A stretch of DNA of 64,000 nucleotides from Octopus sinensis. Taxonomy: Eukaryota. Each line of letters begins with the position of its first letter. The stretch's first letter is position 1. The stretch lies in the NCBI RefSeq assembly GCF_006345805.1, contig NC_042998.1, positions 187,984,001 through 188,048,000 on the forward strand, read 5' to 3'. The notes beneath the pieces were generated by a model that did not search any database, had not been told where the DNA came from, and saw only the letters and a program-made list of their open reading frames with translations. The translations under genes were made by a program, and so were the position numbers. This document shows positions 14,901 to 40,200 of this stretch, in pieces.

Positions 14901-16637
14901 TGCATCTTCTATCAAAGTATTACTCTTATGAGTGGTAGAAAACTAAACTCATATTCAATCAGTTAAAAATTCATTTAACCACTCAAACAAAATTGAACCA
15001 AATCCTATGACTGGTACCCGGCCAATGTCAGTGCCGCTGGACTGACTCCTGTGCACGTGGCAAGTAAAGAAACACTGTTTCGACCCTGTGCTTGAGGAGA
15101 CCTATTGAGTCAAGTACATCAAAATCAAAAATCAATGGAAATTGTAGTTGTGATCCCTGTGCCGGCGGCACGTAAAAAGCACCATCCGAACGTGGCTGAT
15201 GCCAGCGCTGCCTTGACTTGCTTCCATGCTGGTGGCACGTAAAAAGTACCAACCGATCGTAACCATTGCTAGCCTTGCCTGGCACCTGTGCCAGTGGCAT
15301 GTAAAAAGTACCCACTACACTCATGGAGTGGTTGGCATTAGGAAGGGCATCCAGCTGTAGAAACACTGCCAGATCAGTTTGGAGCCTGGTGCAGCCTTCT
15401 GGCATCCCAGACCCCGGTCGAACCGTCCAACACATGCTTGCATGGAAAACAGACGTTAAATGATGATGATGACTTAGACCCTCAGGCTTGCTTCATCAGA
15501 GTGATGGGCAGCATACTATAATGACTTCAAAATCACACCATAATTGATTCTTTTCTTATGCACTTGCTTGTTTTTATGATTTGTAAATTTGATTCCAGCT
15601 ATTCTCTGTTGAGAATTCTCCCAATGTTGACACCTAGAGAACCAATGTCATTTATTTTAATTTCAGACTAACTACATCAGTACATCCAAGTACAATGTTT
15701 TTACATTTCTTCCCAAGAACTTATTTGAGCAGTTCCGGCGACTTGCCAATTCTTATTTTCTAATTCTCCTTATCCTACAGGTATGTAAACAAATACTGTA
15801 CTTCCACCTTTGTGCAATGAGCTGAAAGTGATTTACTTACTCTGTTGTATGTATTTGTGTGTGTCTTTGAATTAACAATATTGATCACGGTTGGCAAGAA
15901 GGATTGGTGATTTATCATTTTTGAATGATATATGGCATATATTATTTAAAAAGTGTTATAATTTGGCATGTCTTTTTGGTAATAATAAGGATTAGTATAG
16001 AAAAAGAAAAACAAAAAAGAAAAAAATTAGAGTTGGAATGTAAGTAGTTGCTAGGGATTGACTAATGGAGAAATTCCATTCTGAAATATACCAGGCAAGT
16101 TATGGTGAAATTGATATGACTTATTAAGGGCAATGACATACAAAAATGCTACAATTTTATAATAGTAAACCTTTTAGTGTTTTTATGTTAATTATATAAA
16201 CTTACAGCTACAGCTGAAGACCCTGTTGTTTCAAAGTCTTTTGGACGTACTACCTACTAACAAAATTACAATGAGCTATGTTAAATATCAAATTTGTCTG
16301 AGAGAATTGTTGTTAAAACTGAACTCATCATTAGAATGTGTCCAACCCAAGACAGCATAGAAGATGGATGCTAAATGATAATGATGAGGATTTACCAATA
16401 TTTACAGTTATGCTATGTTTCGATCAGGTATGCAGGTGTGGTTGCCTGGTCAAGAAGCTTGCTTCCCAACTGTGTGATCATGGATTCAATCTCATTGGGC
16501 AGTACTTTAGTCAAGTGTTTTCTACTATAGTCCCAGGCCCACCAAAGCCTTGTGAATGAATTTAAACCGTCCAACCCGTGCTAGCATGGAAAACGGATGT
16601 TAAACGATGATGATGATGATGAAACTGAAAAGAACCC

Positions 16638-16675
<38 letters not shown>

Positions 16676-19600
16676 GATAGATAGATAGGTATACTGTGTG
16701 TGTGCATGCGTGTGTGTATGCATGTGTGTGTACCCTTGTGCTAGATACCACATGATAGTTGTAAATGTACATTGTTATCATATAAGCAAGGTTATTTGAT
16801 TTTAGTCTTCTATGAGAAACATATCTGCCTATGGGTAATTATTACTTTGCTCGGAGATAGTTGAGCATTAGCAGCAAGAAAGGCATCTTGCCATAGAAAT
16901 ATCTGCTTCAACAAATTCCATCTGACCCATGCAAGTAAAGAAAAGTGACTTTTAAATAATTATGATGATGATGTACATGGTCCCCATACTAGATCCAAAC
17001 TAGGAACATTCATTTCTAAACTGAGCAAAGTAATTTCATTATTTACTAAGCCAGTGCTGTACATGTTCTGGGAGTTTTTATAGATAACAATATTAGTACT
17101 GTTGGCTTTGGATTATCTACACATCCAGGATGACTGTTAAAAACTGAGTTGATTTTAATGTAGTATAGATATAAAATAAAATAAATGCGCCCTTTTAAAG
17201 CCTAGCCAAGCTCATGGGCCCGGTTTCCCGGTTTCTATGGCGTATGTGTTCCCCAGCTGGATGGGACACCAGTCCATCACAGCGTTACTCATTTTTGCCC
17301 GCTGAGTGGACCGGAGCAACATGAAATGAAGTGTTTTGCTCAAGAACACACCGCGTTGCCCGGTCCCGGAATCGAAACCGCAATCGTATGATCCACTAAA
17401 CCACACGCCTCCGCGTAGTATAGATATAGATATTGTAAATGTACACTTCAAAGAGGAAGTGAATAGTCTGTACCATTTATAAAGTAATGTATAAATTGCT
17501 ACTGAACTGAAGTATTTTCTAAAGCTAATAAGAGGAAAGTTATTCTCTGAGACACAGTTATGTTACAAATAATGGGTTTCACAATCTTCTTAAGAAAGAT
17601 CTTCAGTTATTGTGAAACGGGATTTGTAGAAAGTTTGAATTGCTTGTCACTTGCTGCAGCTTTGTGGGGTTTGAATTACATGTTGTCCCAGATGAGAGAG
17701 TGTGATGCACAAGACTGTGTCTGTGCATTTTGTGCAGTGATTATGTCTTTATGCAAGATTATCTTGTTCCCACTGGAGAATGGTTTTGGGTTCTCTATTC
17801 ATGAGGGCAGTGTAAATTTGGAAAGTGGTGTTAGGGTTGGTTGTATGTCTATATTCAGAATATTAAGGAGGAACAAAAATGCTATAATTTGGATAGGAAT
17901 GACTGTTGTTTGAGGTGACTGCAGGTTAAGTTGTTAACATACAAGAGGGAGAGTCTGGGTAATATAAAACAAATCTTGAAGAATACCAGAGTTGATAATG
18001 CATGTCTGAGGACTTATAATTGTGTTCTGCAATCTGACAGGAAACTTTCCATGTAAGAGATTAAAGACAGCTGAATCCTTTAGTTGGCCAGTCTAAACAC
18101 TTTGAAAATTGTGATTTAGAATTGTATAGAAGAAATTGATTACATCCACATTTCAAGGAGCTCATGTTACTTTCTTCATTTTTATATTAGTGGAAAATAG
18201 AAGATTGCTAATCAGAAAATGCCATTGAAGAAACAAACCTTTGTTTTTTGATTGGCATTTCCTTCTTTCTTTTTTTTTTTTTATCTGGCATATTAAAAAT
18301 ATATTCAAGTAAGTCAATGTTGGAGGATAATGATGTTGGTGCTGGAATAGTTGTTGGATAAATTTACTAGGTTCTAATGCTTTTAGCAATAATAAAACAA
18401 GTAGCAGAAGGAAACTATTATAAAAACCGTGCCTTTAGCATCGTAGGTTTCCCAAGTCTCTCTCTCTCTCTCTCTCTCTCTGTAGAACCATATGTTTATA
18501 GTTAATACAACAACCTCTGTAATCATTCATAGACATTATCTTGGGTAAAAGAGTCTTTCTCCTAGATGTTACCGCCAATTTTTAAGAGACCATAATTTTT
18601 CTATTTGAGGAAAAGGAAAATATATTTGGTTAAGAAAGGTCATATTATCTTAGACAATTCAGCAAATCTCCTTAATTAATTTCATAAATTTCTTTAAATA
18701 GTTTGAAAATGATAAAGTCATCTGTGATGTAGACATCATTAATAATGGAGTATTTTGTCATAAAAGCTGATTCCACAGGTGTCATCTCTGAATCCAATTG
18801 CCACATTCATACCGTTAGTCACTGTTCTGGGACTCAGTGCCATTAAAAGTGCTATTGATGACATAGTAAGTGAAATTTGGGTATATTTCATTTCATGTTA
18901 CCTTTGGCTGATTCTAAAAGTGCTAAATTCATGTTACCTATGGTGATCACAAAAGTGCTAAATTATTATAATTATTTTCATTATTTATTGTTTTTTTCTT
19001 TTTTAGAAGCTAAAAAAATTTGAGTACTTGTAATTTTTGCTGCAATACTTTGAAAGGAAAATTAGCCTCTAAAATGCCTTGAATGCAAAATGTCCTTTAA
19101 AAACCTTAGGTTTCTTATCTATGTAAGAATCTGATATTAGTAATTGATTACTTAATAAGTTGGATTTGGTGCCAAACGCTTATGATTTCAAACCCTGTAA
19201 TTGACATTGTTATTTGCACATATGTGGCAATTAACAATTCCAACTGCCTGTGAGTAAAAATGGTTTCAAATTCACACAATTTATTGGTGACTTGCTGTAA
19301 AAGGTCTGTTCAAATAGTTCCCATATAAATTCACTTTTAACCCTTTAAACCTCTGTATGAAAAATTTATAAGTATTTTTTTGCATTTGAACAAAGTAAAA
19401 ACAAAATATACTTCTGGGCTTTTCATGCACATTCACATGTAAATGAAGTACAATAAAAAATTGTGGGAATTGAAACTAGCTCACGAGCTCTGATCAATTG
19501 AATTTATTTATTCTATAAAATTAGTGTTTATTCATAAAGTTTTGTTGTCATCAAAAAATTACAGTACACAAATTTCTTTATGTTTGTATTATTTTTAGAA

Positions 19601-22600
19601 TTATCTCAGAAGGATATTTGCAGCCAAGAAAGTTAGTTTAGAGATAGATGATGAATTTTAATTGAATGTTGATTTTTAACATTGTTCAGTGTCACAAAAT
19701 TTGGAGAAGGGGTAAACCAATTACTTCTACCCCAGTATTTGTATGGCACTTTCTTTACTAATGTATGAAAGCTGATATAAAAAGCAAAGATGACCATGAA
19801 AGTAGAACATAAATTATATTACTAAACATTACACAACACTTTGTTTGGGACTCTGCTGATTCTATCTTCTTATAACTTTTATTGTATTTATGATAAAAAA
19901 ATAAAACCGTTTTCTATGTTCAGCTGAAAAAATTTTGGCGTCAAGTGAATTTTTTTTGTGTCATATGTAGAATTTCATATGTCTAAGACAGATGTTGTTG
20001 TGCAAGATTTGCTAGGATTTCTATAAGATGACAAATATATTTTGTTATTAAAATTCCTTTCTTGGCTTTGTCTGCACAAGCCTGTAAATTACTCACCAAT
20101 AGCATTTGGTGATGGCTTTCTGCTGGGTAAGCAGTATTTATTACTGTATCCAAGAGTTTAGTAGACTGAAGCATTTACTTGAGATACATCATTTCAACCT
20201 GTGAGCTGGAAGATTTATATCGTTAATGTTTCATGTGCGACTTATTGCTTATTGTAACAATAAATTTTTTATGTAGGAGTAAGTCGATTAAATTGACGCC
20301 AGCGCTCATCTGGTACTTATTTTATTGACCCAGAATGGACGAAAGGCAAAGACGACTCCAGCAGAATTTGAACTCAAGATGTAAAGATGGATGAAATGCT
20401 GCTAAGCATTTTGCCCAGTGTGCTAACAATTCTGCCAGCTTCCTGCCTTACTTGCCCTATGAATATTGATATATGTCATATATAATACTCCAACAGCTGT
20501 ATTTACTTTATCACTGTAACATTTGGCTAAGAATAGACTTCTATGATAATTCTAGATATGTCTCTGCACAAGAAACATATCTTTAATTGGTTTATATATT
20601 AGACTTTGCTGGGATTGTTCTTTACAATTTTCTGCAACTGCAAAATGCACAAAAGACACATATGCACATGCATAAATATATGTAATATAATATGATATAA
20701 TATATATATATATATATTGTTTCATATAAATATTATTTTATTAAATGTGGGAAATATATTCATATATAAGGTTTTATGTATTTTATGAGGGAAATGTATT
20801 TTCTTTTGAAATGTTGTTCACTTGATGAGTTATTTTTATTTATTCATTTTTTTTTTTTTTCAATTAAGTTATGTACAAATTAAAAATAAATGTAGCTTAT
20901 TTGGTATGGTATTATGCTTATGATCTAATTTCAGAGAGAAAAAAAAATCTGTTTAATCCGATATTATTAGCATGTATTTGAGACAGATAGGGCAAACAGG
21001 TTCACTGATGGGACCTACCCCATTTAAATCATCTATCTATTACTCATTGGGCAACCATGTTACTGATTGCATTGCAGATAATGAATGTGTAGTGAAACTA
21101 ATAAGACAGTTGTTTGATAAGTGATATGCATGGCTTGACTCATTGATATACCTACTCATCTTTTCTGTCTCAAATTATTTGTTATAATGTCTAATATCAT
21201 TGTACATTGAAAATATTAAAACAGTTACTTGAATATCTAAATGTCTGATGAAAAGAAATGGAGGATGAGATTGATAGTTTGAAAAATCTTACAAATATTT
21301 ATAGCTTTATAGATCCAATAAAAATATTGAGTCTTATTTCTGCTCTATTTGACTTGTTGAGCTTATAGATCCATCTGTTTTTAATTGATGGTAATATTTT
21401 ATGATTAAAGAATATCATGACTAATTTTCATATATATACTCACCATAGACACACACTTTGGTGAAGAGGTATTTAATATTAAGCAGTTAATTTCTTTACA
21501 ACCACCAAGTAAACAAATATAAAATATAAAATCTTGTCCTATTATTACTTATTTTGGTGTGGTTGTTGGGGTGTAGCAATATCTAAATGAGTAAGAAATC
21601 ATTTTAGACACAAAACTATCAGATCATATCCTATCATTAGTGCTAAGCTGTGTTTTGGGCCAAGTAAATTAACAGTTCTGATGGCTGTAGAACCATTAAC
21701 GATTTTGTATGTTTACCTTGTGCTTCTTTCATCCTCACCTTAACTTGTATAGTGCAATTATACTTTGCTAACAAGGTCAGAATAATACCAAAAAATGTAT
21801 GTTCTTCCCTGAATTTGTTGGGTAAATGAGAGTCATATTATTCATTGACTGACTTTTTTTCTTCACCATACATTTATTTTTTGTTAGCTTTTAAGATGCT
21901 CTTTGCATTAATAAGTTACCAGTGGCTTATCTAAAACAAAAATTAGTGAGATGACAGTTCAATGATAGATCAGCAAACCCATATTTTGTGTGTAGTTTGG
22001 TATTTTGCTGTTGTGAGACAGAGCTATTTTATATAATACTTTTTTGTTTTTTTAAAGTATATCTGTTTCTGTTGTTGCTAACATAATCTCTGTCAGAATT
22101 TTAAGGGAAGAAGCTGACAGTAATTTCTCAAATAAACAATGAAGTTCAAATTTTTTTAGGGGAAGAGAAAATGAAAGTTGTGAATATGATACATTCCCTT
22201 TAAGTTTAATAAAAAAGAAATAAAAATAATTACAATTGTAAATTCAAACTGATTCACTGATTCACTTTGCTGGGAGATAATAATTATCAACATGCACATC
22301 AATAGAACAGAATGTTGCTACTTGTAATGATACTTCATGCAAGCAAAAAGCTCTAACACTTATACAGACACTTCAAAATCAACAGTGGTTAATATGTTGA
22401 TTTCTCATAAACCAATCGACTATCATTTGGAAAGTTTGTACAACTGTTGGATACTTTTTTGTATAAATAAAATGTATAACGCTACATTCAGATGCATTGA
22501 ACTCTTTTTGTGTGTATTGTTTTAACCTAAGATTATCATTATATATTTGTAATTGTAGAAAGTTGTTGTATGTATCTCTTTTTATGTGCCCATGTTGATA

Positions 22601-25600
22601 GGCACTGGTTGTCATGGATTTCCTTGCCAAAGTCAATTTTCTTAAGAATGATGTGACAATGGTGTCCCATTGCCTTCTACCAGTTTATTTATAGTTTACT
22701 TTATAAGTCTCTTGCTCTACTAAGCTTACCCTTGAGGCATAGGGCTTATTTAAATCATAGGCAGGAATGGGGAACTAGTTCGTGTGGCATACGGGCTTGT
22801 TCACACATTACACGTTTGCAAAAAATATAAAAACTAAAAATCCATCAGTGAACAACATTATTGAATGGACAAAGCCTTTAACACATTTACTGTCAAATGC
22901 AAGGAAACAGGAAATATTACATGTAGAAAATTACACTTAACCCTTTTGATACCAACCCGGCTAAAACCGCCTCTGGCTCTGAGTACAAATGTTTCGTTTC
23001 CATAAGCTTGGAATTAAAATCTTCCACCAAACCTTAGTCTCAATTTATGTTCCTAACATTAGCTTAATGATAACTAAGTTATTTTACTAAATTCTTTGTT
23101 ATATTTAAAGTAATTGAAAGAAACACAGAGCATCTCGAAATAAATATAGTAACGAAAGGGTTAAACATTTTCTAAGTGTCATATGTTATAGTGATATCTT
23201 TGAAAACCTGTTCTTAACAAACAAGATTTATTATCTTTTGAAATGAATTCTTTGAGAATCTACTAAGTTTTATTAAATATATGACTTCATTGATAATAAA
23301 TTAATGATAAATTCTATCCTTATCAAAGGTTTCATGCATTTGGCAGTGCATTTGTTGAAATTAACTCTGTCCAATTTGTGACTGTCCTATCATTACTATG
23401 GTGCTAAAATACATTTTTAAAAAAATGGTTTATCTTTATTTATGCAATCTCTTTTCTCTTTTATTATGATTTGTTTTGGTTTTTGCTTGCCAGTTCATCC
23501 CCCCGATCTCGTCTTTGACCCCTCTAACTACTCTGATACCAATGGTGGCGGTACTTGCCATTACTGCATTAAAGGATTTGGTAGATGACGTTGTAAGTTT
23601 TGGTTCTTTTTACTATGGCCGCAATGGGTCAGTATGTGAATTATTAATGTACTACATTGTTTATATGCACACACACCATATTTTTTTTTATCATTGCTTT
23701 GATTCTGCTGTTTATTTTCCTATTTTTTTTCTATTTTCCTTTTCTTTTAATTTCGCATTCTTTCTATCATTGTCTTCTGCTTTCTTTCCCTGTCTTTTAT
23801 TATGTCTTTCTTCCTATCTTTTGTTTTCTCTTTCACTCTCTTTCTCTCTTGTATTTCCTCTTTTTACCCGTCTTTCCTTTTTTTTTCCACTCTTTCTTGT
23901 TTCCAATCTGCCTCCTCCTCCTCCTTCCTCACTCTTCTCTCTCTTTGTATCTCTTTCTTTCTTTCTTGTAGCTTCTCTCTTTTTTCTTGTTTTTTTTTCT
24001 TCTAAATTTTTCTTTTTGTTTTTGCATGCATCCTGTACTTTGTTCTTCTGAATCCCATGCATTTTCTCCTGTTTGGTATTTTACATTCCTTATTCTCTAT
24101 CATCTCTCCCTCTATTTCTTCCCTCTTCGTTTTTACCTCCCCACTCTCTGTATTTTACTTCACCTTCTTTCAATCTTCTACAATATTTTATCCACCCCTG
24201 CTAACTACCATCTACATAAACAGGTAAGTTTGATTTTTTTGTTCTCCATAGATACAACTGCCTTACTATAGTTATACAATTCTATAATCCTATGATCTGA
24301 CTCCATATCTCCATATCTATTTATGGCTTTACTGATATTTTTGGCAATATTTATAGGAATTACCAAAATTCTGTTTTATATGATTCCTTCATAGCATAGC
24401 ACTGTTGCCAATTGGCTTGGCAAACAGTATACTTCCTGCATTTAGACTGTAAATTTGACACCTAAATCTCTGTTTTCTTAACATGGATGTCTTGTTAGCC
24501 AAGAATTGCCTGTCGTGAGTGCTGTCTGTTTCAGTTTATGTGTGTACTTTTATGCATCGAATGTCTATATGCGAGGAGCTTTCAAGACTGATAATGCAGT
24601 ATTTGGTGTTCTAACAAGCCATCCATGTTAAGTTGGATATAAAGATTACCTTCTGTTATTAATATCGCTTCCATGGCTAATAGTTAATTTTTGATAAGCC
24701 TGCTGGCTATTTGTGAAACCAGTGTCTGAAAGGATGTTGATATTCTATATATTGTAGTAGCGAGATTTTGACTGGCATGCAGTAATTGGATGCCTCTCAC
24801 TGATGATTTTCAAAAGAATGAAATTATGTGATTTAGGAGTTCTAGTGCTCATGACAGCTGATTCTTGTCTGCTATCATCTATGCACTAAGGGTCTATGTG
24901 GGAGGATCTCTCAAGGCTAATAATGCAGTAGTTGGTGTTCTAACAATAAATTCATGTTAAGGATATAAATATTACATTCTGGTATTAATACAGCTTCCAT
25001 TGCTGTATTAATTTTCTACTACCACTTTTACTACATGGTATTTGGAGGGTGTCTATCCACAGAAATCATACCAGAGCAGAGAGTAGAGCTTGGCGCAGTC
25101 TTCTGACTTACTAACTCCTGTTGAATCATCCAACACATGTCAGCATGGAAAGTGGCAGTTAAATTATGATGATGATGAGGATTATTAAAATGGCAGTGAA
25201 TTGGTTAAGTTGAAGCATAGGACAAAATTCCTTGTAGTATTTGCTGGTTCTTCATGTTCTGAGTTCAAATACTACTAAAATCAACTTTGTTTTGTTATCC
25301 TCTTTGTGGTACCAACATTGTTGGGGTTGCCTTGTCGCTTGTAAAGCAAAAGAGAGCACCTCACACTGGAAAGGAATAAACTTATTATGAAGGGATGGTA
25401 ATGAAATAAATAATAGGAGTAGTGTGTTGGGTTGGGGGAGAAGAGACAGAAGAGAGGAGAAGGAAAAAAATAACATCAGGGATTAATGTAAAGGAGAGAG
25501 TGGAAGGGTAATGTGAATGTAGGGGAGAAGTGGTGCATAAAAGAAAGATTAGATGAAAATGGGTAATAGGTGAGATTGGTAAAGGGAGAGATACTGTTAA

Positions 25601-28600
25601 AGGATTAGTGAAAGAGTCATTGATAAGGTGAGGAGAGATGAGGTTGGTTGAATAGGTGATACAGAGCTACCCCCAATTATATATGGGTGGATAGAGTGGT
25701 GTGAAGGAGAGATACATGGGATGATGATGAAGGGCAAGAGTATATTCTTAATGTAGTATGCCCAAAAGAGCAGGGAGTTAGGGAGGGCAGGTAAAGGTTG
25801 TCAACCTGTGATCTCCGCACCCACTCAAGTATCTTGGTTTTGGTTTGGGAGAAAGGAATGGGTAGCAAAATGTAGGTGGTGGGAATATTCAATATGTACA
25901 AATCAAGTAATTTTCTCTCAGTAATGGGTGCCATGGTACAGTGAGTTGAAGAGATGAGAGGTGGGGTACAGAATAGGAACAGCAAAGAATGGGGTGCATG
26001 CACAGGAGATCTGATCTTTTGCAGCACTGTGTATTAGTAGTCATCATCGTCTTTATTACTGTCTTTGTCAGATATTATAACATCCTGAGATCATTTTTTA
26101 CCACCTTATCCCAAATGTGTCTTGGTTTACCTCTCACATGGGTACCACTTCACTTTGAATGCTCTGTACTTGCTTAGGCAGCTGCTATCCTCCATTTTGC
26201 ATTACGTACCCCTAACCATTACAGTCTCCTTTCTTGCACCCTACAGCTGATTCCTTTAAAACCCAATTTGTTTCTCATTTCATTTATACATTGTCATTCA
26301 CACACATCCAATGAAGCTTACTCACTTTATTTCTTTCAAGCCTTTACATATCCTCTACCCTCAAAGCCATGTTTCACTGCTGTGCAACAGTGCACTTTGC
26401 ATACAAGCATTATACAGCTTATCCTTAATCTTGAGAGATAAGCCCTTTGTTGCCTGAATTTTCTCTTTGCATCTACCACACTTTTCGAGCATCCTCTTTC
26501 ATTGCTGTCAGGGTGTCGAATTGCAGGAAAGGGGCATAGTTTATTAAACTGAACCCTAGTACATATTTTATCAACCCTGGAGTGAATGAAAAACTAAATC
26601 AATTTGAACTTCAAACATGAAGGGATATAACTAAATATTGCAAAGCATTTTCTCTAATTCTCTACTCTTTGTGCCACTCCACTGCCTTGTATATTAGCTG
26701 TATGAAATTACTTTGTCATTTTGCTTTAATTGTAGTGAGTGATTTCACTTTTTAGTTCAACACTAATGTATTCTTGTTGGATTTAAAAGGTGCTGATGAT
26801 ATTTTACTCTATAATGGAAAAAATATTTGATACCATACAGTTATGAGCTGGATTTCTGCCATGGTTGTCAGAGATTTTTTATTTACTTTACTGATGATCA
26901 AAATAGCACCATTAGCATGCTAGAAATTCTATCTAGTTGATTGTGCATTTGAGGTCTCTGCTGGTGGTTATGATTGCTAGTTCCAAGAGGTATTACTACT
27001 CATCATCTTGCTAGGAACAGTGTAGTAAACATATATGAAATACTATATAGAATTAAGCAGCAATAATGCAATTGATCAAAATGGAATCCAATTTTGCTGT
27101 GAAAAGGATTTGTGTGGGTAAATCAACCATTTCATTTTACTGTATTTAATCAATCTTTGAGGATGAGAACTCCGGTCCTGTGGGCTTTGAACTGCAAGGA
27201 ACCAAGTTAGGCACTGTACCAAATCTGAGAAACTGATGATGATGATGATGATAATAAAAACATTGTAGTAGTAGTAATGAGGATTTCTTACATAAAATTA
27301 ATATTAAATATATTACTCACATTGGCAGAAAGCCACATATTTGTGACAGGAAGAGGTGTAGTTGATTTAATCAACCTCAGTATACTACTGTTATTTCTTA
27401 TAAGGTTTTCAGTCTCAGTATTTCAGTGAAGGTGAAGTTTGGGCATTAATATATTCCCCAAGTTAGTAATGCTGTACATTGAAGCAGTGCTAATATAGGA
27501 AGCAAATTCATGTAGCAAACACAACTCATGAACACATTACTACTGCATCACAGCTCTTACTCCAGTAATAAAATGATGGTGATATTGGTCATAATGATTC
27601 TAGCATTGACTCAAGGCTGCACATTATGAGAAAAAGGGCAGCTGATAAATTAACACCAGTGTGTGAAGTAATTATTTATAGTAAGCAAAGTTTATTTTGA
27701 CAGTATTTGAACTCAGAAGATGAGTAATCTAGCTAAATATCACCTGTTGGTTCAGCCATTCTGTTGACTTATGATAATTACGATGCAAATAACGATGGTT
27801 TATAATTTGGACATGAGGGCAGCAATTTTGAGGGGAGAGGCTTAACTGATACATTTTGACCACAGTACTTGACTGGTACTTTATTTTACCAACCCTGGAG
27901 GGATAGAAGCAAAGTTGACCATGGTGGGGTTTGAAGTTGAAATGTAAAGAGTCAAGAATAAAAGAATAAAAAGTCAAAAGAAATAAGCTCAGCAGTGCTG
28001 GTACCATGAAAAAAGCATCTGATACATGCTGTAAAGTGGTTGGCATTAGGAAGGGCATCTAACCTTAGAAACCATACCATAGCAAACTTTGGAGCATGAT
28101 GCAGTATTTGGACTTGTGAGGTCCTGTCAAACTATCCAACCCATGGCTGCATGGAACATGGATGGTAAATGATGATGATGTTGATGATTAGTAATATTTT
28201 ACCTTGAAATTGATTTGCAAAATAAACAGACATAAATGTCTATTTATTTATAATACTATTTATTTATAAGTGGATGTAGGTTGGAGAGAGGAAGCAAAAA
28301 ATAAAGACATCTGTTGAAAGTCTATATAGTTTATGAGAGAGGTAAATCTGAATTGATTGTTTGAATTTTATATAGGTTCAGCTATTGTATTTCCTCTAGT
28401 TTTGTAGCCAAAGTAGTAATGTTGCTAGGATATGAATCAGTCACTGTAAAATGCATTTTATGTGTTTTAAGCTGTAGCTCTGGTTTTATAAAATCTAAGA
28501 AATAAAAGCCAAAGGAAGTTTTATATTTTCATTACTATCCCTCTAAAAATAAAAATAAAAAATCTTTTTTTCTAAATTAAGATTTTTCCAATAAGTGATT

Positions 28601-31600
28601 TGAAAGTGCATAACTTTATCAAATATTCCTAAAAAATATTTTTACATGACATCATTTATACTTACATACCTATCTTACATGCACATGTATGTGTGTGTGT
28701 GTGTGTGCGTGCGTGCATGCATGCATGCATGTGTGTGTGTGGAATTTGTTTATTGATATATTCATATATGAATGTAAGTATGTATGAAGGATTTTTATCT
28801 ATATACATTTTTCTTTAGCAACGCCATCGAAGTGACAACCAGGTTAATAATCGTATTTCCTCTGTGCTTCGTGATGGTCAAATGGTTGAAGAAAAATGGC
28901 ACAAAGTTGTTGTTGGTGATATCATTCGAATGGAAAACAACCAGTTTGTGGCAGTAAGCATTAGTTTATATTTTCACTCCCAACAAAATACCGCTTCGTC
29001 CATTATATGTAGTATGATGTAAATTTTAATCAATTTGATTTGAGATAAAATTCTACCTAAATAGCACTGTATACAATAAGTATACAATAAGTTTATTGTT
29101 ATTTGTTTTGTTCTAAATCATCTGATAAGAACAGTCAACATGACATAATGATTAATGCTTTTCCTGGTGCACATACAATCTATCTTTTAAGGTCAAGAGT
29201 AGGGATTGGTCAGTCTTTCTTGCAAGAGGATTGCCAACAGTTTATGTAGTTGACACTTTCTTCCACCTTAGGACTTTTATATTAAAAAGCTGTATAAAAA
29301 CACAGCAGCTACAGTCATATGTTATGAGTACTGGAAGGCAGTTTTCTAATATATTACAGTATACATTTAAACATTTTTACATGCCATATCTTTAAATAAC
29401 TTACATTTAGGTTTATTTATTAATAGTGAATATAAAATTTTGCCAGCCCCGTCTGGCACCTGTGCTGGTGGCACGTAAAAAGCACCCACTACACTCTCGG
29501 AGTGGTTGGCGTTAGGTAGGGCATCAAGCCGTAGAAACATTACCAGATCAGACTGGGCCTGGTGCAGCCTCCTGGCTTCCCAGACCCCGGTCGAACCGTC
29601 CGACCCATGCTAGCATGGAAAGTGGATGCTAAATGATGATGATGAAGTCATATAGGTGTATTACCAAGGGAACAGCAACATATAATTGGAGTTTGACCCG
29701 TTTTGTCCTCTACTTCTCCTTGTAGATGGAAAGGTGCTTTATAGATACTGGCAGGGAGGATATCAAGGTTGCTAGCACTGACTGGACTCATAAGCATTTC
29801 AGTTCAATAACCCAATGTCCTGGGATTCTTATGCTATCTTGAGCACATCCCTATGATTTGATGTGCCATTCAACATGCTATGAATGGAAGAAAGGCTTAA
29901 TTTGGTAAATACATATGCATGTATTACTCATTCACTGATACACAAAGTATTGGATTTTTTGCCTTCCATGACATATGAAAGGACTTTTAGTGTGATTTGC
30001 CACTCAGAGATTCATTGAAAACTTTGAGGCATTGAAGATAGGCATCATGATTAGGTCTTCTATTTCACCAACTATGATATTGGTAGTGAAAAGTGAAGGA
30101 AGCTATTTGAAAGAGACAAAAATCTGAAGACCCTTAATAACTGCTATGGTTGCTATAACAACTATGTAGCTACATCAATACAATGAATCAATATCAAGTT
30201 GTACCATTGTTGTTTTTCACAGGTGAGTGAGAAAGAGCTGCAGAGGAATAAAAACTAAAGAAAACCAATAGCCTAACTTATGAATGGTTTTAATGACAGG
30301 AACACGAAGATCAATTTGATAGAAGTGTTTGTGTTCCTAAGCCATATTGTAATTTCAAAACAATATCTTGACCTTATGGCTTAATTTGACCTGATAAAAA
30401 AAAATGTCTGATTATTGAGTTGATGGTGTCTTGAGAAGGCAATAAGGGCACAGGAAAGAAAGGGCTTGAAATTTGGGTAACTTATAGAGTCATATGAGGT
30501 ACAAAGATGGCAGTGTATGTCATTGCAGTGCAAGTTATATATGAAATGTGTACTATTGTTGTTAAATGAATTATCATTAAAAAGTGTATCTAGCAGTTTT
30601 ACAATGAAAGTGTATTGGGATGTAATGAAAAAAAAAAACCCCAAAAAAGAAAAACAGAAAAGTAAAACTACTGGAAAAAGTGTTTCACTAGTCATGTAGA
30701 ATGTTTATTTCAAAACAAAACTTATATTAAAAGGATACTAGGACACAGTTGTTGTTGTTAGATGATATATAAGTGTTGATGTTGTAATGCTGCAGGCATT
30801 CATATGCTACCAGGAATAAATATATGAGGAATAACATTGTTAGTCAATTACTAATATTATTTCAATTTCTTTCCTACAAGTGAAAGGGACAACACTGGAT
30901 ATGGTTTGGTCTTATTCTGACCTCACCAGTAAAGCTTAGCGTTCATTATTGTATTGATAATGTGAGTTCCCCATTGAGAGCATGTGGAATTACTTGTAAA
31001 TTGTTTTAATAAATTGACAATGAGCAAAATGCTCTCAAACAAAATTGTATTACTATTGCATCATTTTCCCTTGAGTGAAAGATGTTCAGGGTTTCTAAGG
31101 CCCCTTTCAATCATAGCTGATTTTTTGCACCAGGAATGCTCCTTTCCAAGAAGCTGGAATCTGAAAGATTTTTTTTGTGAAAGACTAGTAGTTGCACATG
31201 TATGCGATGCCCTCTCTTTTAATGCTTTTAATGATGTCCAAGGTCAAGGCAAGACCAATGCTGTTTGGTACCAGTGCCATTGCAAGCAATGATGTGAGAA
31301 GATAAGGAACTGGAATGTACCATAAAGTATCCCATCTGATACTCCAGTGATTCCTTCAATCCATTGCCCTTCTTTTTTATTGAGCCTGAAAGGTTGAAAG
31401 GCAAAGTTGGACTTGAAGTGATTTGAACTCAGAGCAAAGAGAGTTGGAACAAATACTGTGAAGCACTTCTTCTATCTGATGCCTTAACAACTTGGTTAAA
31501 TTGTTGTTTGTCCTGTAATTTGTTTTCTAAGTGCTTGTCATAAAAATATGTATTATCAAAAATGGGGTGGTTTTGGGTGTTTAATTAAGGTGATGCATGG

Positions 31601-37243: not shown

Positions 37244-40200
37244 ATATGCGTGTGTGTGTTTGTCCCCCTAGCATTGCTTGACAACCGATGCTGGTGTGTT
37301 TATTTCCCCGTTACTTAGCGGTTTGGCAAAAGAGACTGATAGAATAAGTACTGGGCTTACAAAAGAATAAGTCTCGGGGTCGAGTTGCTCGATTAAATGT
37401 GGTGCTCCAGCATGGCCGCAGTCAAATGACTGAAACAAGTAAAAGAGTAAAAATGAATGGAATACATATTAAACTTCAATAGGATACTGGAAATGATATT
37501 TCGATAATAAATCTGGACACATGGAAGAAAATAAGGAAACCTATGTTGAGAAAAACAGCAAAATTTGCTTGTAGCATGGCAGGTGACAAATTATATTTCA
37601 TAGGCGAAATGTGGACTAATGTCACATTTTGAGGGAAAACATACAAGGCAAAAGTCATCATTGTTAAAAATGCAATCAGTCTATTTGGTACCAATTGGTT
37701 AGAATTATTCGATTTATGGGTCCTCCCCATAAATCTCTATTGTAAAAACATAAATGGTTGTCCTTCTAATAATAATTCATCTGAAGAGTTAAAGAGAAAA
37801 AAATGTTTCTGCAAGTACTCTCAGACAAACTAGGTCTATGCACAAAGAAGGAAGCATGTTTTGAATTAGATGATAACATTACACCTGTGTTCAAGCCTAA
37901 TAGGATAGTGCCATTTCTGGCAATAAAGCAAGTGGGTGATGAGTTGGACAGATTGGTAAAAACGGAATCATTGAAAGAATCGATTATGTGAAATGGTAAG
38001 CTCCAACTGTATGTATAAAAAAGAAAAATAACAAAATTAAGTTGTGTGCTGATTTTTTTGACTGGTTTAAATGACTGCTTAAAAACGAACCATTATCCAC
38101 TACCAACCCTAGAAGATATTTTTACAAAACTAAATGGAGGAAAAATATTTTCAAAGCTTGATCTGTCTGATGCATATCTACAAATCAAAGTAGATAAAAA
38201 ATGCTCAGAGCTGTTAATAGTCAACATTCACAGAGGTCTATACAAATACAGTACAATACCTTTTGGACTGATGCTAGCACCTGCAATATTGTGGTTGGGA
38301 AGCAAACATCTTGCACCTATGCCTATGAATACATATGAAATTTCAGTTTCATCCTGATAAAGCTGAACTATGACCAAAAACACTCCAATTGTGACCACAA
38401 CAAGTTTTAGTGGGTATATAGGACTATGTGGAGGCGCATGGCTTAGTGGTTAGGGTGTCCGCATCGTGATTGTAAGATTGTGGTTTCGATTCCTGGACTG
38501 TGTGACGCATTGAGTTCTTGAGCAAAACACTCCATTTCATGTTGCTCCAGTTCACTCAGCTGGCAAAAATGAGTAACGCTGCGATGGACTGGCGTCTCGT
38601 CCAGCTGGGGAACTCATGCACCATTGAAACTGGGAAACCGGGCCCATGAACCTGGCTAGGCTTTAAAAGGGTGCATATATAGGACTATATTATTCAATGT
38701 ATCCTTTCCTTATTTAAGACATTAGGGAGTGATTTGAGTGAGATTTGGCTGTTATTTCTAACAGATTGAATGACTATATAGAGGCTCCCTTGTTGACTAT
38801 TTGAGTAATGTGTTAATGTTCATTGTTCTTTGATTATATTTATTACTTGGCTGAATGTTTATATGTGTAGCCAGATGTCAATGCTCCCCTTATTAGTCAT
38901 CTGTTGATACTGCCAGCATATGTTGAGATGTGGCCATCAATTAATACAACTGTTATTATTCATTCTTGAGTAATATGGTAACCTCATAGGCCATTGTTAC
39001 ACATTTTTTTTTTGTTTAGCACTAAATTAATTGATCAAAGGTTTTCCACCTGTGACCATCCAACCAATTTTGGATGGGATATAATGTACCCCAAACAACA
39101 TTAGCCAAAATTTCTTTCCTTTTCTAGGAGATTTGGTTGCTATTTCTGGCAGGTCAGGATTCCATGTAGAAACTTCTCCATTGGTACTTCTTAAAAAGAT
39201 CTTGTTTGCTTTTAGCTCAACATTTGTTGATGTTATAAATCTCTCTATATATAAATGGCAAAATGTCTGTGTGTGTGTGTTCTTTATACAAATCCACAAT
39301 TTTTCAGTTAGAGGGCTCGCACTTTCTATGGTCATTCAAAACCGTCCAAGGGTGGTCGTGCACATCTTTACATTTCCCCGGTCACCTCGCAAAGCCATTA
39401 AAAAATCAGTAGAAGTGACTTTTTTGTGAATTTTCTATCCAAAATCCAATCAAAATGCCCAAAACTTGATACGCCAATTGAATGCCAGCTAGCTGTATGT
39501 GATTGGTCGGAGATTTGGACAGTACTCGCATATATGTGCACACGCACGCAGCTGTATATGCTGGGTCATAGTGCTTAGTATTGGATATTAGCTTAACCCT
39601 TTAGCATTCAAATTAATCCATGAACTATAATGCTTATTTATCCACATTGTTTCATATTAATCATGCATTATCTCATACCTCTGTGATTTTGATGATGTGA
39701 TTGTTTATGTTTACAATGACATTGTAGGGTATGTGTGAGAGGCTAGATCTAACCAGTTTGAATATAAAACAGATCAAATACTTGGGCTGGACATGGCTTG
39801 TTTGAATTCTAAAGGGTTAAGCTTCTGTAGGGTTTTACCTAGGGAAAATATGGTCCGGGAGAGATTTCCAGAAGCTTGTAGTCCTGGGGTAGAATTAATT
39901 TTTTAGATCACTCTTTGGGATATTTTTCACAGTGTTTTACATTTGAGAGCGTCATGGGAGATCATCTGTGGTGAAATCTAGTTGCTGTTGACTAAAAGCT
40001 TTATTTGTGTTTATTCATATTAAGAAGAGTGTTTAATAGGATAGTTTGTTGGCCTATGGTAGATGTAGAGGAAGAGGCTAGCAGACAACTCAAGTTGGTA
40101 GATAACAAGGCCTCTGGTGTAATATGAGAAAAGTCTGAGTGCCAAGAGAAGTGTGCATTGAAGGCACTGAGGATAATGACTTCATGGAGATGTAGGTTCA

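Follow-up and report, generated by a model that had tools for sequence, protein, structure and literature searches.

Can a single lipid flippase gene, by exchanging one exon for another, give rise to two pumps that handle lipids differently? The question is raised by a stretch of Octopus sinensis DNA of 64,000 nucleotides (hereafter the window; NCBI RefSeq assembly GCF_006345805.1, contig NC_042998.1, forward-strand positions 187,984,001 to 188,048,000), which contains part of a gene for a phospholipid-transporting ATPase of the ATP8B type. On the + strand of this window, two exons of 99 nt each lie between two constant ones. The constant upstream exon (15667-15780), placed as part of an exact exon chain, encodes transmembrane helix 1 (TM1) and ends in the codon for the entry-gate Gln, and the constant downstream exon (28819-28953) encodes the cytosolic stretch by which TM2 continues into the A domain. 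The two exons between them, named exon A (at 18767-18865) and exon B (at 23494-23592), are both open and of phase 0, and each encodes the TM1-TM2 loop together with all of TM2. Our analysis indicates that this pair is real, that it is annotated as isoforms and widespread in molluscs, and that it is apparently undescribed. We consider it fairly probable that A and B form a tandem pair that is normally mutually exclusive and yields two pumps differing in transport, that is, in lipid preference and/or turnover.

A first-pass annotation of this DNA had given coordinates, translations and splice sites for both exons, all of which proved correct. Exons A and B are each flanked by an AG acceptor and a GTAAGT donor, and their peptides align without gaps and agree at 16 of 33 residues, 12 of which are specified by different codons, a count made in the first pass and reproduced here. 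Nucleotide identity amounts to 19/33, 27/33 and 8/33 at codon positions 1, 2 and 3, respectively. The likeness of the two exons is not a matter of chance, since A and B score 95 against each other in an ungapped BLOSUM62 comparison, all other 33-codon windows in the six frames of the 64 kb scoring at most 29, and tblastn related the two at an E value of about 4e-8. Because synonymous sites are saturated (pS 0.91) while pN, the nonsynonymous counterpart, is 0.29, the pair is, on this evidence, an old tandem duplication of which both copies have been kept coding under purifying selection, as had been proposed earlier. A third copy of the exon was not found in the six-frame scan of the window, and no similarity was detected between the introns flanking A and those flanking B. 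Many of the 17 differences exchange one hydrophobic residue for another, and each exon encodes one hydrophobic 19-mer. Two additional features were observed at exon A. A second in-frame acceptor (CAG) within it, at 18779, would give an 87-nt exon without four of the residues, a form present in neither of the A-bearing records described below; and a 35-nt tandem repeat of 2.1 copies (18892-18964) begins 27 nt past the exon A donor, either as a splicing element or by chance.

Both exons are already annotated, exon A in RefSeq isoforms X3 of two Octopus species and exon B in other records. The Octopus cluster of protein records comprises 14 members, 12 of which span the region; ten of these carry B, two carry A, and none carries both or neither. 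The two A-bearing records are XP_036356467 (P0123) from O. sinensis and XP_014790380 (P0131) from O. bimaculoides, the latter containing the exon A of the window with one change. The record P0130 is reproduced by an exact chain of 17 exons running from 15667 to 61174, and P0123 differs from it at 17 positions only, all within residues 103-135, which correspond to the exon. The alternative use of the two exons, claimed in the first pass, is thus matched by one-exon isoform models in public protein sets. This isoform evidence consists of annotation models, the underlying reads being no part of it; RefSeq models of this sort usually rest on RNA-seq junctions. In addition, full-length oyster proteins with exon A only are encoded on Logan contigs of 4-6 kb. 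Four sequencing runs mapped to 15640-28970 were swamped by intronic repeats and are uninformative on any junction, the 15 joints listed out of 158 being repeat artefacts, and the zero count in the exon B bin of all four runs carries no weight either way. Of the 24 sequencing runs listed by a search with exon B, 20 contain its words and none is recorded as RNA.

The comparison with other molluscs that the first-pass annotation had called for finds the pair in gastropods and bivalves as well. Both versions occur in 19 of the 30 named mollusc species with records over the region, namely in three cephalopods, five gastropods and 11 bivalves. They appear as separate one-exon isoforms in 16 of these 19 species, while in Argonauta, Pinctada and Argopecten a single model holds both, with no separate isoforms seen. 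In each of the remaining 11 species one version was seen, in many cases from just one record. Models with both exons have A followed by B, as in the window; elsewhere, including in all gastropods, exons were assigned to A or B by sequence and not by position. No second version was present in 13 non-mollusc clusters with at least two records over the region (Lingula, Dimorphilus, Branchiostoma, Aethina, six from nematodes, zebrafish ATP8B1 and two unnamed), zebrafish ATP8B1 having one TM2 version in 6/6 records. Exon A is identical at 32/33 residues between the two Octopus species and at 24/33 to Argonauta; it was not found in squid, nautilus or chiton by searches that were shallow, the region search yielding 23 hits and no new cephalopod. 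Within a class, A is approximately as conserved as B (25.7-27.0 vs 25.2-29.0 of 33 residues), and between cephalopods and bivalves the mean identity is 16.7/33 for A and 22.0/33 for B. Records of several bivalves mostly carry exon A (4/5 in Mercenaria, 4/5 in Mya, and 4/5 of those with an exon in Mytilus), the reverse of the situation in Octopus, although such record counts per exon do not represent expression levels.

The host gene occupies 8844-61174 of the + strand, as far as it lies within the window, and was delimited by tblastn of RefSeq isoforms, by the exon chain and by record names; neither the first nor the last of its coding exons could be located there. Used as a query, a constant exon retrieved Octopus records named 'phospholipid-transporting ATPase ID', and the exon chain includes the DGET, DKTGT and PISL motifs of P4-ATPases. 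Of the solved structures, ATP8B1 matched best (1195 bits vs 894 for ATP8A1), and the host protein is nearer to ATP8B1 than to ATP8A, Drs2, Dnf1, ATP11 or ATP9. By these comparisons it is a P4-ATPase of class 1b (ATP8B).

With the numbering of known flippases, position n of the exon corresponds to residue 230+n of Dnf1, 237+n of Drs2 and 131+n of ATP8B1; the alignments with ATP8B1 and ATP8A1 are gapless, and the offsets for the yeast proteins Dnf1 and Drs2 were taken from stretches of equal length. In the first pass, the swapped exon had been regarded as part of the lipid entry gate, its first codon specifying the second residue of the motif that is Gln-Gln in Drs2 and Gly-Ala in Dnf1. This placement is correct, as the first swapped residue aligns with Drs2 Q238 and Dnf1 A231, but the argument built on it has little force: the codon of the key Gln (Dnf1 G230, Drs2 Q237 and ATP8B1 Q131) is the last one of the constant TM1 exon, and the swapped residue is only Leu vs Phe. 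Across molluscs, position 1 varies among L, F, V and M in A and B exons alike and does not separate the two. It is the TM1 Gln (Drs2 Q237, Dnf1 G230) that was reported to have the strongest effect on phosphatidylserine (PS) selection and to block glucosylceramide transport (PMC12424579). Since this Gln lies in the constant exon and the Asn at TM4 Pro-4 is constant in both isoforms, a glucosylceramide switch is unlikely. The description as an entry-gate exon falls short of the whole, since the exon spans all of TM2 with its hydrophobic-gate and exit-gate positions, and it is at the exit gate that the rarest change is located.

Along the exon, A and B have in common P3, P16, V20, K27, D31 and D32. 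Position 20, Val in both, is equivalent to ATP8A2 I115, which was described as a hydrophobic gate, and positions 24 and 28 are equivalent to Dnf1 T254 and D258 (ATP8A2 A119 and E123), which were linked to headgroup selectivity at the cytoplasmic exit (PMC4937031). At positions 24/28 exon B has Thr/Asp, like ATP8B1, and octopod exon A has Ser/Ser. Of 125 distinct homologous peptides, a non-random sample drawn from 320 of 399 retrieved proteins, 117 have Asp at position 28, five have Glu (two of them gastropod A exons) and three, all octopod A exons, have Ser, whereas K27 and D32 are found in 125/125. Ser28 is kept in all three octopods; a shallow HMMER search gave 20 hits, none with Ser28, and no report of an Asp-to-Ser change at the D258 position was found. 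A and B differ further at loop positions 9-12 and at position 19. In 16 tabulated pairs the B exons have T-P-L/V at positions 9-11 (Thr 15/16, Pro 16/16) while the A exons vary by class, which makes B look conserved and A retuned. The T-P-L loop and the Thr/Asp at 24/28 of exon B are also those of most invertebrate single-copy orthologues seen. The A exons would then represent class-specific solutions, with octopods losing the exit-gate acid, two gastropods exchanging Asp for Glu, and bivalves having an aromatic W/F-Y loop similar to vertebrate ATP8B1. Loop positions 9-12 and exit-gate positions 24/28 appear to be stronger candidate determinants than the Gln-Gln motif.

Since the pump core is kept in both, the two isoforms should both be active glycerophospholipid flippases, and the differences at the exoplasmic mouth, at position 19 and at the exit gate suggest that they most likely differ in transport. 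Two reports on other flippases point the same way: the TM2 exit-site change E114G was found to alter the specificity of ATP11A (PMC11536178), and the broad specificity of ATP8B1 has been tied to the spacing of TM1-2 from TM3-4 (PMC10657443). The difference would be a shift of lipid preference or turnover and not an all-or-none switch, because the wide groove of ATP8B1 binds phosphatidylcholine (PC), PS and phosphatidylinositol (PI) alike, the three lipids being occluded with near-identical side-chain positions (PMC10657443). A clear change of the preferred lipid between the A and B isoforms is conceivable rather than probable, and it is with the same caution that we raise the possibility that molluscs switch flippase lipid preference through splicing, by swapping the whole TM2 wall of the transport groove.

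Several observations weigh against two exclusive exons with different transport properties. The TM1 Gln, the TM4 Pro-4 Asn, PISL and D31 are the same in both isoforms; D31 is equivalent to E114 of ATP11A, and this position is an unchanged Asp in both exons. None of the positions tells A from B consistently across the 16 pairs, so that there is no single switch common to all molluscs; position 28 is Asp in 11/16 A exons, and position 24 is variable among A and B exons alike. Moreover, given the near-identical occlusion of PC, PS and PI by ATP8B1, the ATP8B clade may be permissive and hard to retune. Exclusivity itself is less than complete in the records, as among 74 named NCBI mollusc records 66 contain exactly one exon, five contain both (Argonauta, Pinctada, Argopecten and two Crassostrea virginica X1) and three contain neither (C. 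virginica X4, Saccostrea cucullata X3 and Mytilus edulis X3). The both and neither forms in C. virginica and the neither forms in S. cucullata and M. edulis sit alongside one-exon isoforms and may reflect leaky splicing, which counts against strict exclusivity. The exclusivity expected in the first pass is matched by 12/12 Octopus and 66/74 mollusc records, with 8/74 departing from it; mutual exclusion of A and B is likely, though perhaps not strict.

The exons might, alternatively, be alternative and conserved but affect coupling to CDC50, folding, stability or trafficking instead of lipid handling. Such a role would fit the finding that the exit site includes the beta-subunit's N-terminus beside TM2 (PMC12424579), as well as the constancy of the main headgroup determinants and the hydrophobic-for-hydrophobic nature of many of the 17 differences. 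However, the rarest change sits on a selectivity-linked residue and, as far as trafficking is concerned, the ATP11 localisation signals reviewed lie in the C-terminal tail (PMC11775268), so that we regard this explanation as unlikely. Similarly, A and B could be near-equivalent and be kept because tissues depend on different splice sites, with A drifting under weaker constraint. While the larger divergence of A between cephalopods and bivalves and the lack of any residue diagnostic across molluscs would be expected in that case, the approximately equal conservation of A and B within each class would not, nor would the presence of Ser28 in all three octopods and of W/F-Y in 12/12 bivalve A exons, and near-equivalence seems improbable to us.

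With regard to the control of splicing, the TM1 exon would be joined to either A or B, and then to the exon at 28819. The exon A acceptor (AAG, with 8/17 pyrimidines) is the lowest of 18 acceptors scored in the gene. Exon B is preceded by an AG-free, pyrimidine-rich stretch of 149 nt (23345-23493, + strand), the longest among the 18 acceptors, with the next longest measuring 101 nt, and this stretch contains a predicted distant branch point (TTAAC, 23361-23365) 130 nt upstream of exon B. With its strong acceptor and long AG-free zone, B would be the default form, and A, with its weak acceptor, would be a regulated minority form that is used where B is repressed, or A activated, by a tissue factor. 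Three established routes to exclusion were considered and rejected. Steric exclusion of the OGDH type needs a branch point no more than about 50 nt from the upstream donor (PMC7969005), and here the A-B intron measures 4628 nt, with the candidate branch point about 4.5 kb from the A donor. Incompatibility of U2 and U12 introns does not apply, all introns being GT-AG and the donors of A and B both GTAAGT, and neither does nonsense-mediated decay (NMD), as both exons are 99 nt long and double inclusion or skipping stays in frame. For exclusion through competing RNA pairings between a docking site and selectors, a scan of the introns gave 48 inverted pairs, the 25 listed being mostly low-complexity or repeat-derived, with duplex scans run without a control, and no TGCATG was present within 300 nt of either exon.

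These properties bear on a further explanation, in which A and B are two cassettes that are not strictly exclusive, and double inclusion or skipping produces misfolded pumps, by which the amount of active flippase would be adjusted. The 8/74 records with both or neither exon would be accounted for in this way, the 4.6-kb spacer rules out steric exclusion, both donors are GTAAGT, and NMD cannot remove the in-frame products. On the other hand, 0/12 Octopus records contain both or neither, and the both-exon model is the sole model in three of the four species concerned, joint inclusion being a mistake typical of gene predictors where exons lie in tandem. Furthermore, with one hydrophobic 19-mer per exon, the inclusion of both or neither would be expected to upset the membrane topology, and we consider this explanation very unlikely. 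It is scarcely credible that exon A represents a pseudo-exon or an artefact of annotation, as its weak acceptor, its presence in 2/12 Octopus records and the absence of reads obtained across its junctions have to be set against an open frame, synonymous sites at saturation, its recurrence in three octopods and, as counterparts, in gastropods and bivalves, and the oyster A-only proteins on Logan contigs.

The bivalve A exons raise the additional question of how the pair arose. Oyster A is identical to zebrafish ATP8B1 at 26/33 residues and oyster B at 20/33, while oyster A and B share 18/33; by a hand count, human ATP8B1 agrees with oyster A at 24/33 and with oyster B at 20/33 residues, and the aromatic W/F-Y loop is present in all 12 bivalve A exons examined. 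In trees that rest on very few columns (33), and in which the two ATP8B1 rows had been retrieved with oyster A as query, favouring the result, bivalve A grouped with vertebrate ATP8B1. A single clade of all mollusc exons was rejected by the approximately unbiased (AU) test (p 0.0021 under LG+G4, 0.0019 under a mixture model), one clade of all A exons gave p 0.058 (0.035 with more rows), and a separate cephalopod duplication was not rejected (p 0.29); by these trees the mollusc pair may have arisen once or more than once. A search with oyster A gave 87 hits, with no W/F-Y exon in other invertebrates among them: the hits came from bivalves, vertebrates and one arthropod-like protein with a T-P-V loop. 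Since one protein placed next to the nematodes has a T-P-L loop whereas other nematodes have W-Y, the aromatic state may arise repeatedly. The simpler reading of the resemblance between bivalve A and vertebrate ATP8B1 would be convergence on a functional type; that two exon types are older than the protostome-deuterostome split is less likely and, in our view, rather improbable.

In the source genome, a constant exon had one chromosome-scale match among eight candidates scored, and the other four genome matches, in compact genes on small contigs, look foreign, so that a single ATP8B gene in octopus is likely. The foreign-looking ATP8B-like loci (L002, L003, L005 and L006, on contigs C9061, C9496 and C9002) have a GC content of 28-33%, and their exons lie about 450-700 nt apart where the counterparts in the window are 18 kb apart. 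L002 and L005 contain apparent 27-nt and 30-nt introns after the matched exon, tiny introns which we take to be reminiscent of dicyemid kidney parasites. L005 and L006, about 33 kb apart on C9002, are 3093-nt loci identical over their full length and represent either a recent duplication or an assembly duplicate. The three contigs are probably DNA of another organism within the assembly. For the part upstream of 8844, Octopus records of the host gene show four alternative N-termini (isoforms X1, X2, X4 and X5), whose first peptides could not be located on the window's + strand. Inside an intron, at about 37630-38350, broken reading frames presumably represent pieces of a retrotransposon protease and reverse transcriptase, and high-copy interspersed repeats occupy 16500-17400, 20300-20450, 22950-23170 and 27850-28100, drawing many contigs of the four mapped runs, with one of them ending about 330 nt before exon B.

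Substitution events derived from tandem exon duplication have been catalogued for human, fly and worm, where they are reported to be enriched in ion transporters and often convergent (PMC8373072, PMC9741552). The octopus pair resembles such catalogued pairs in that its exons are adjacent, equal in length and phase, old, conservatively different and part of a membrane transporter. It differs from them in being seen in molluscs only; ATP8B is absent from the human table (PMC8373072 supplement, 0 hits) and also from one supplement file of PMC9741552, a text of 15 kb that is perhaps partial. The human ATP8A1 pair (event 29 in PMC8373072, of vertebrate age) likewise consists of internal homologous alternative exons in a P4-ATPase, but it swaps 25 cytosolic A-domain residues downstream of TM2 and not the lipid path, and concerns a different exon and subfamily. 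Of the human class 1b proteins ATP8B1 and ATP8B2, ATP8B1 is the best solved match, gapless over TM1-TM2; in cells, PC and PI have been reported as substrates, and activation by glycerophospholipids in vitro is broad (PMC11775268, PMC10657443). In vertebrates several ATP8B genes exist, and the records examined show one TM2 version, whereas the octopus would have one gene with two versions, and splicing would thus provide molluscs with a diversity that vertebrates gained through several ATP8B genes. The Dnf1 T254/D258, ATP8A2 A119/E123 and ATP11A E114G variants all affect the same helix, the Dnf1 and ATP8A2 pairs at exon positions 24/28; in contrast to these engineered or patient-derived exit-gate variants, the variation in octopus is natural and would be switched by splicing. 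Literature searches, in which most subscription journals were outside the coverage, revealed neither a paper on the mollusc ATP8B exon pair nor a case in which splicing switches the lipid preference of a P4-ATPase via TM2.

The way in which P4-ATPases choose their lipids is still argued, and most of the evidence comes from engineered chimeras and patient mutations. The mollusc pair provides matched pumps that are identical save for TM2 and the loop in at least 16 species, with class-specific substitutions at known gate positions, and thereby allows the role of TM2 to be tested directly in the ATP8B clade, for which the range of substrates is under debate. Should the isoforms prove equal, the locus would represent an ordinary, already annotated alternative exon pair; if they differ as proposed, an animal with apparently one ATP8B gene could tune its membrane asymmetry by tissue.

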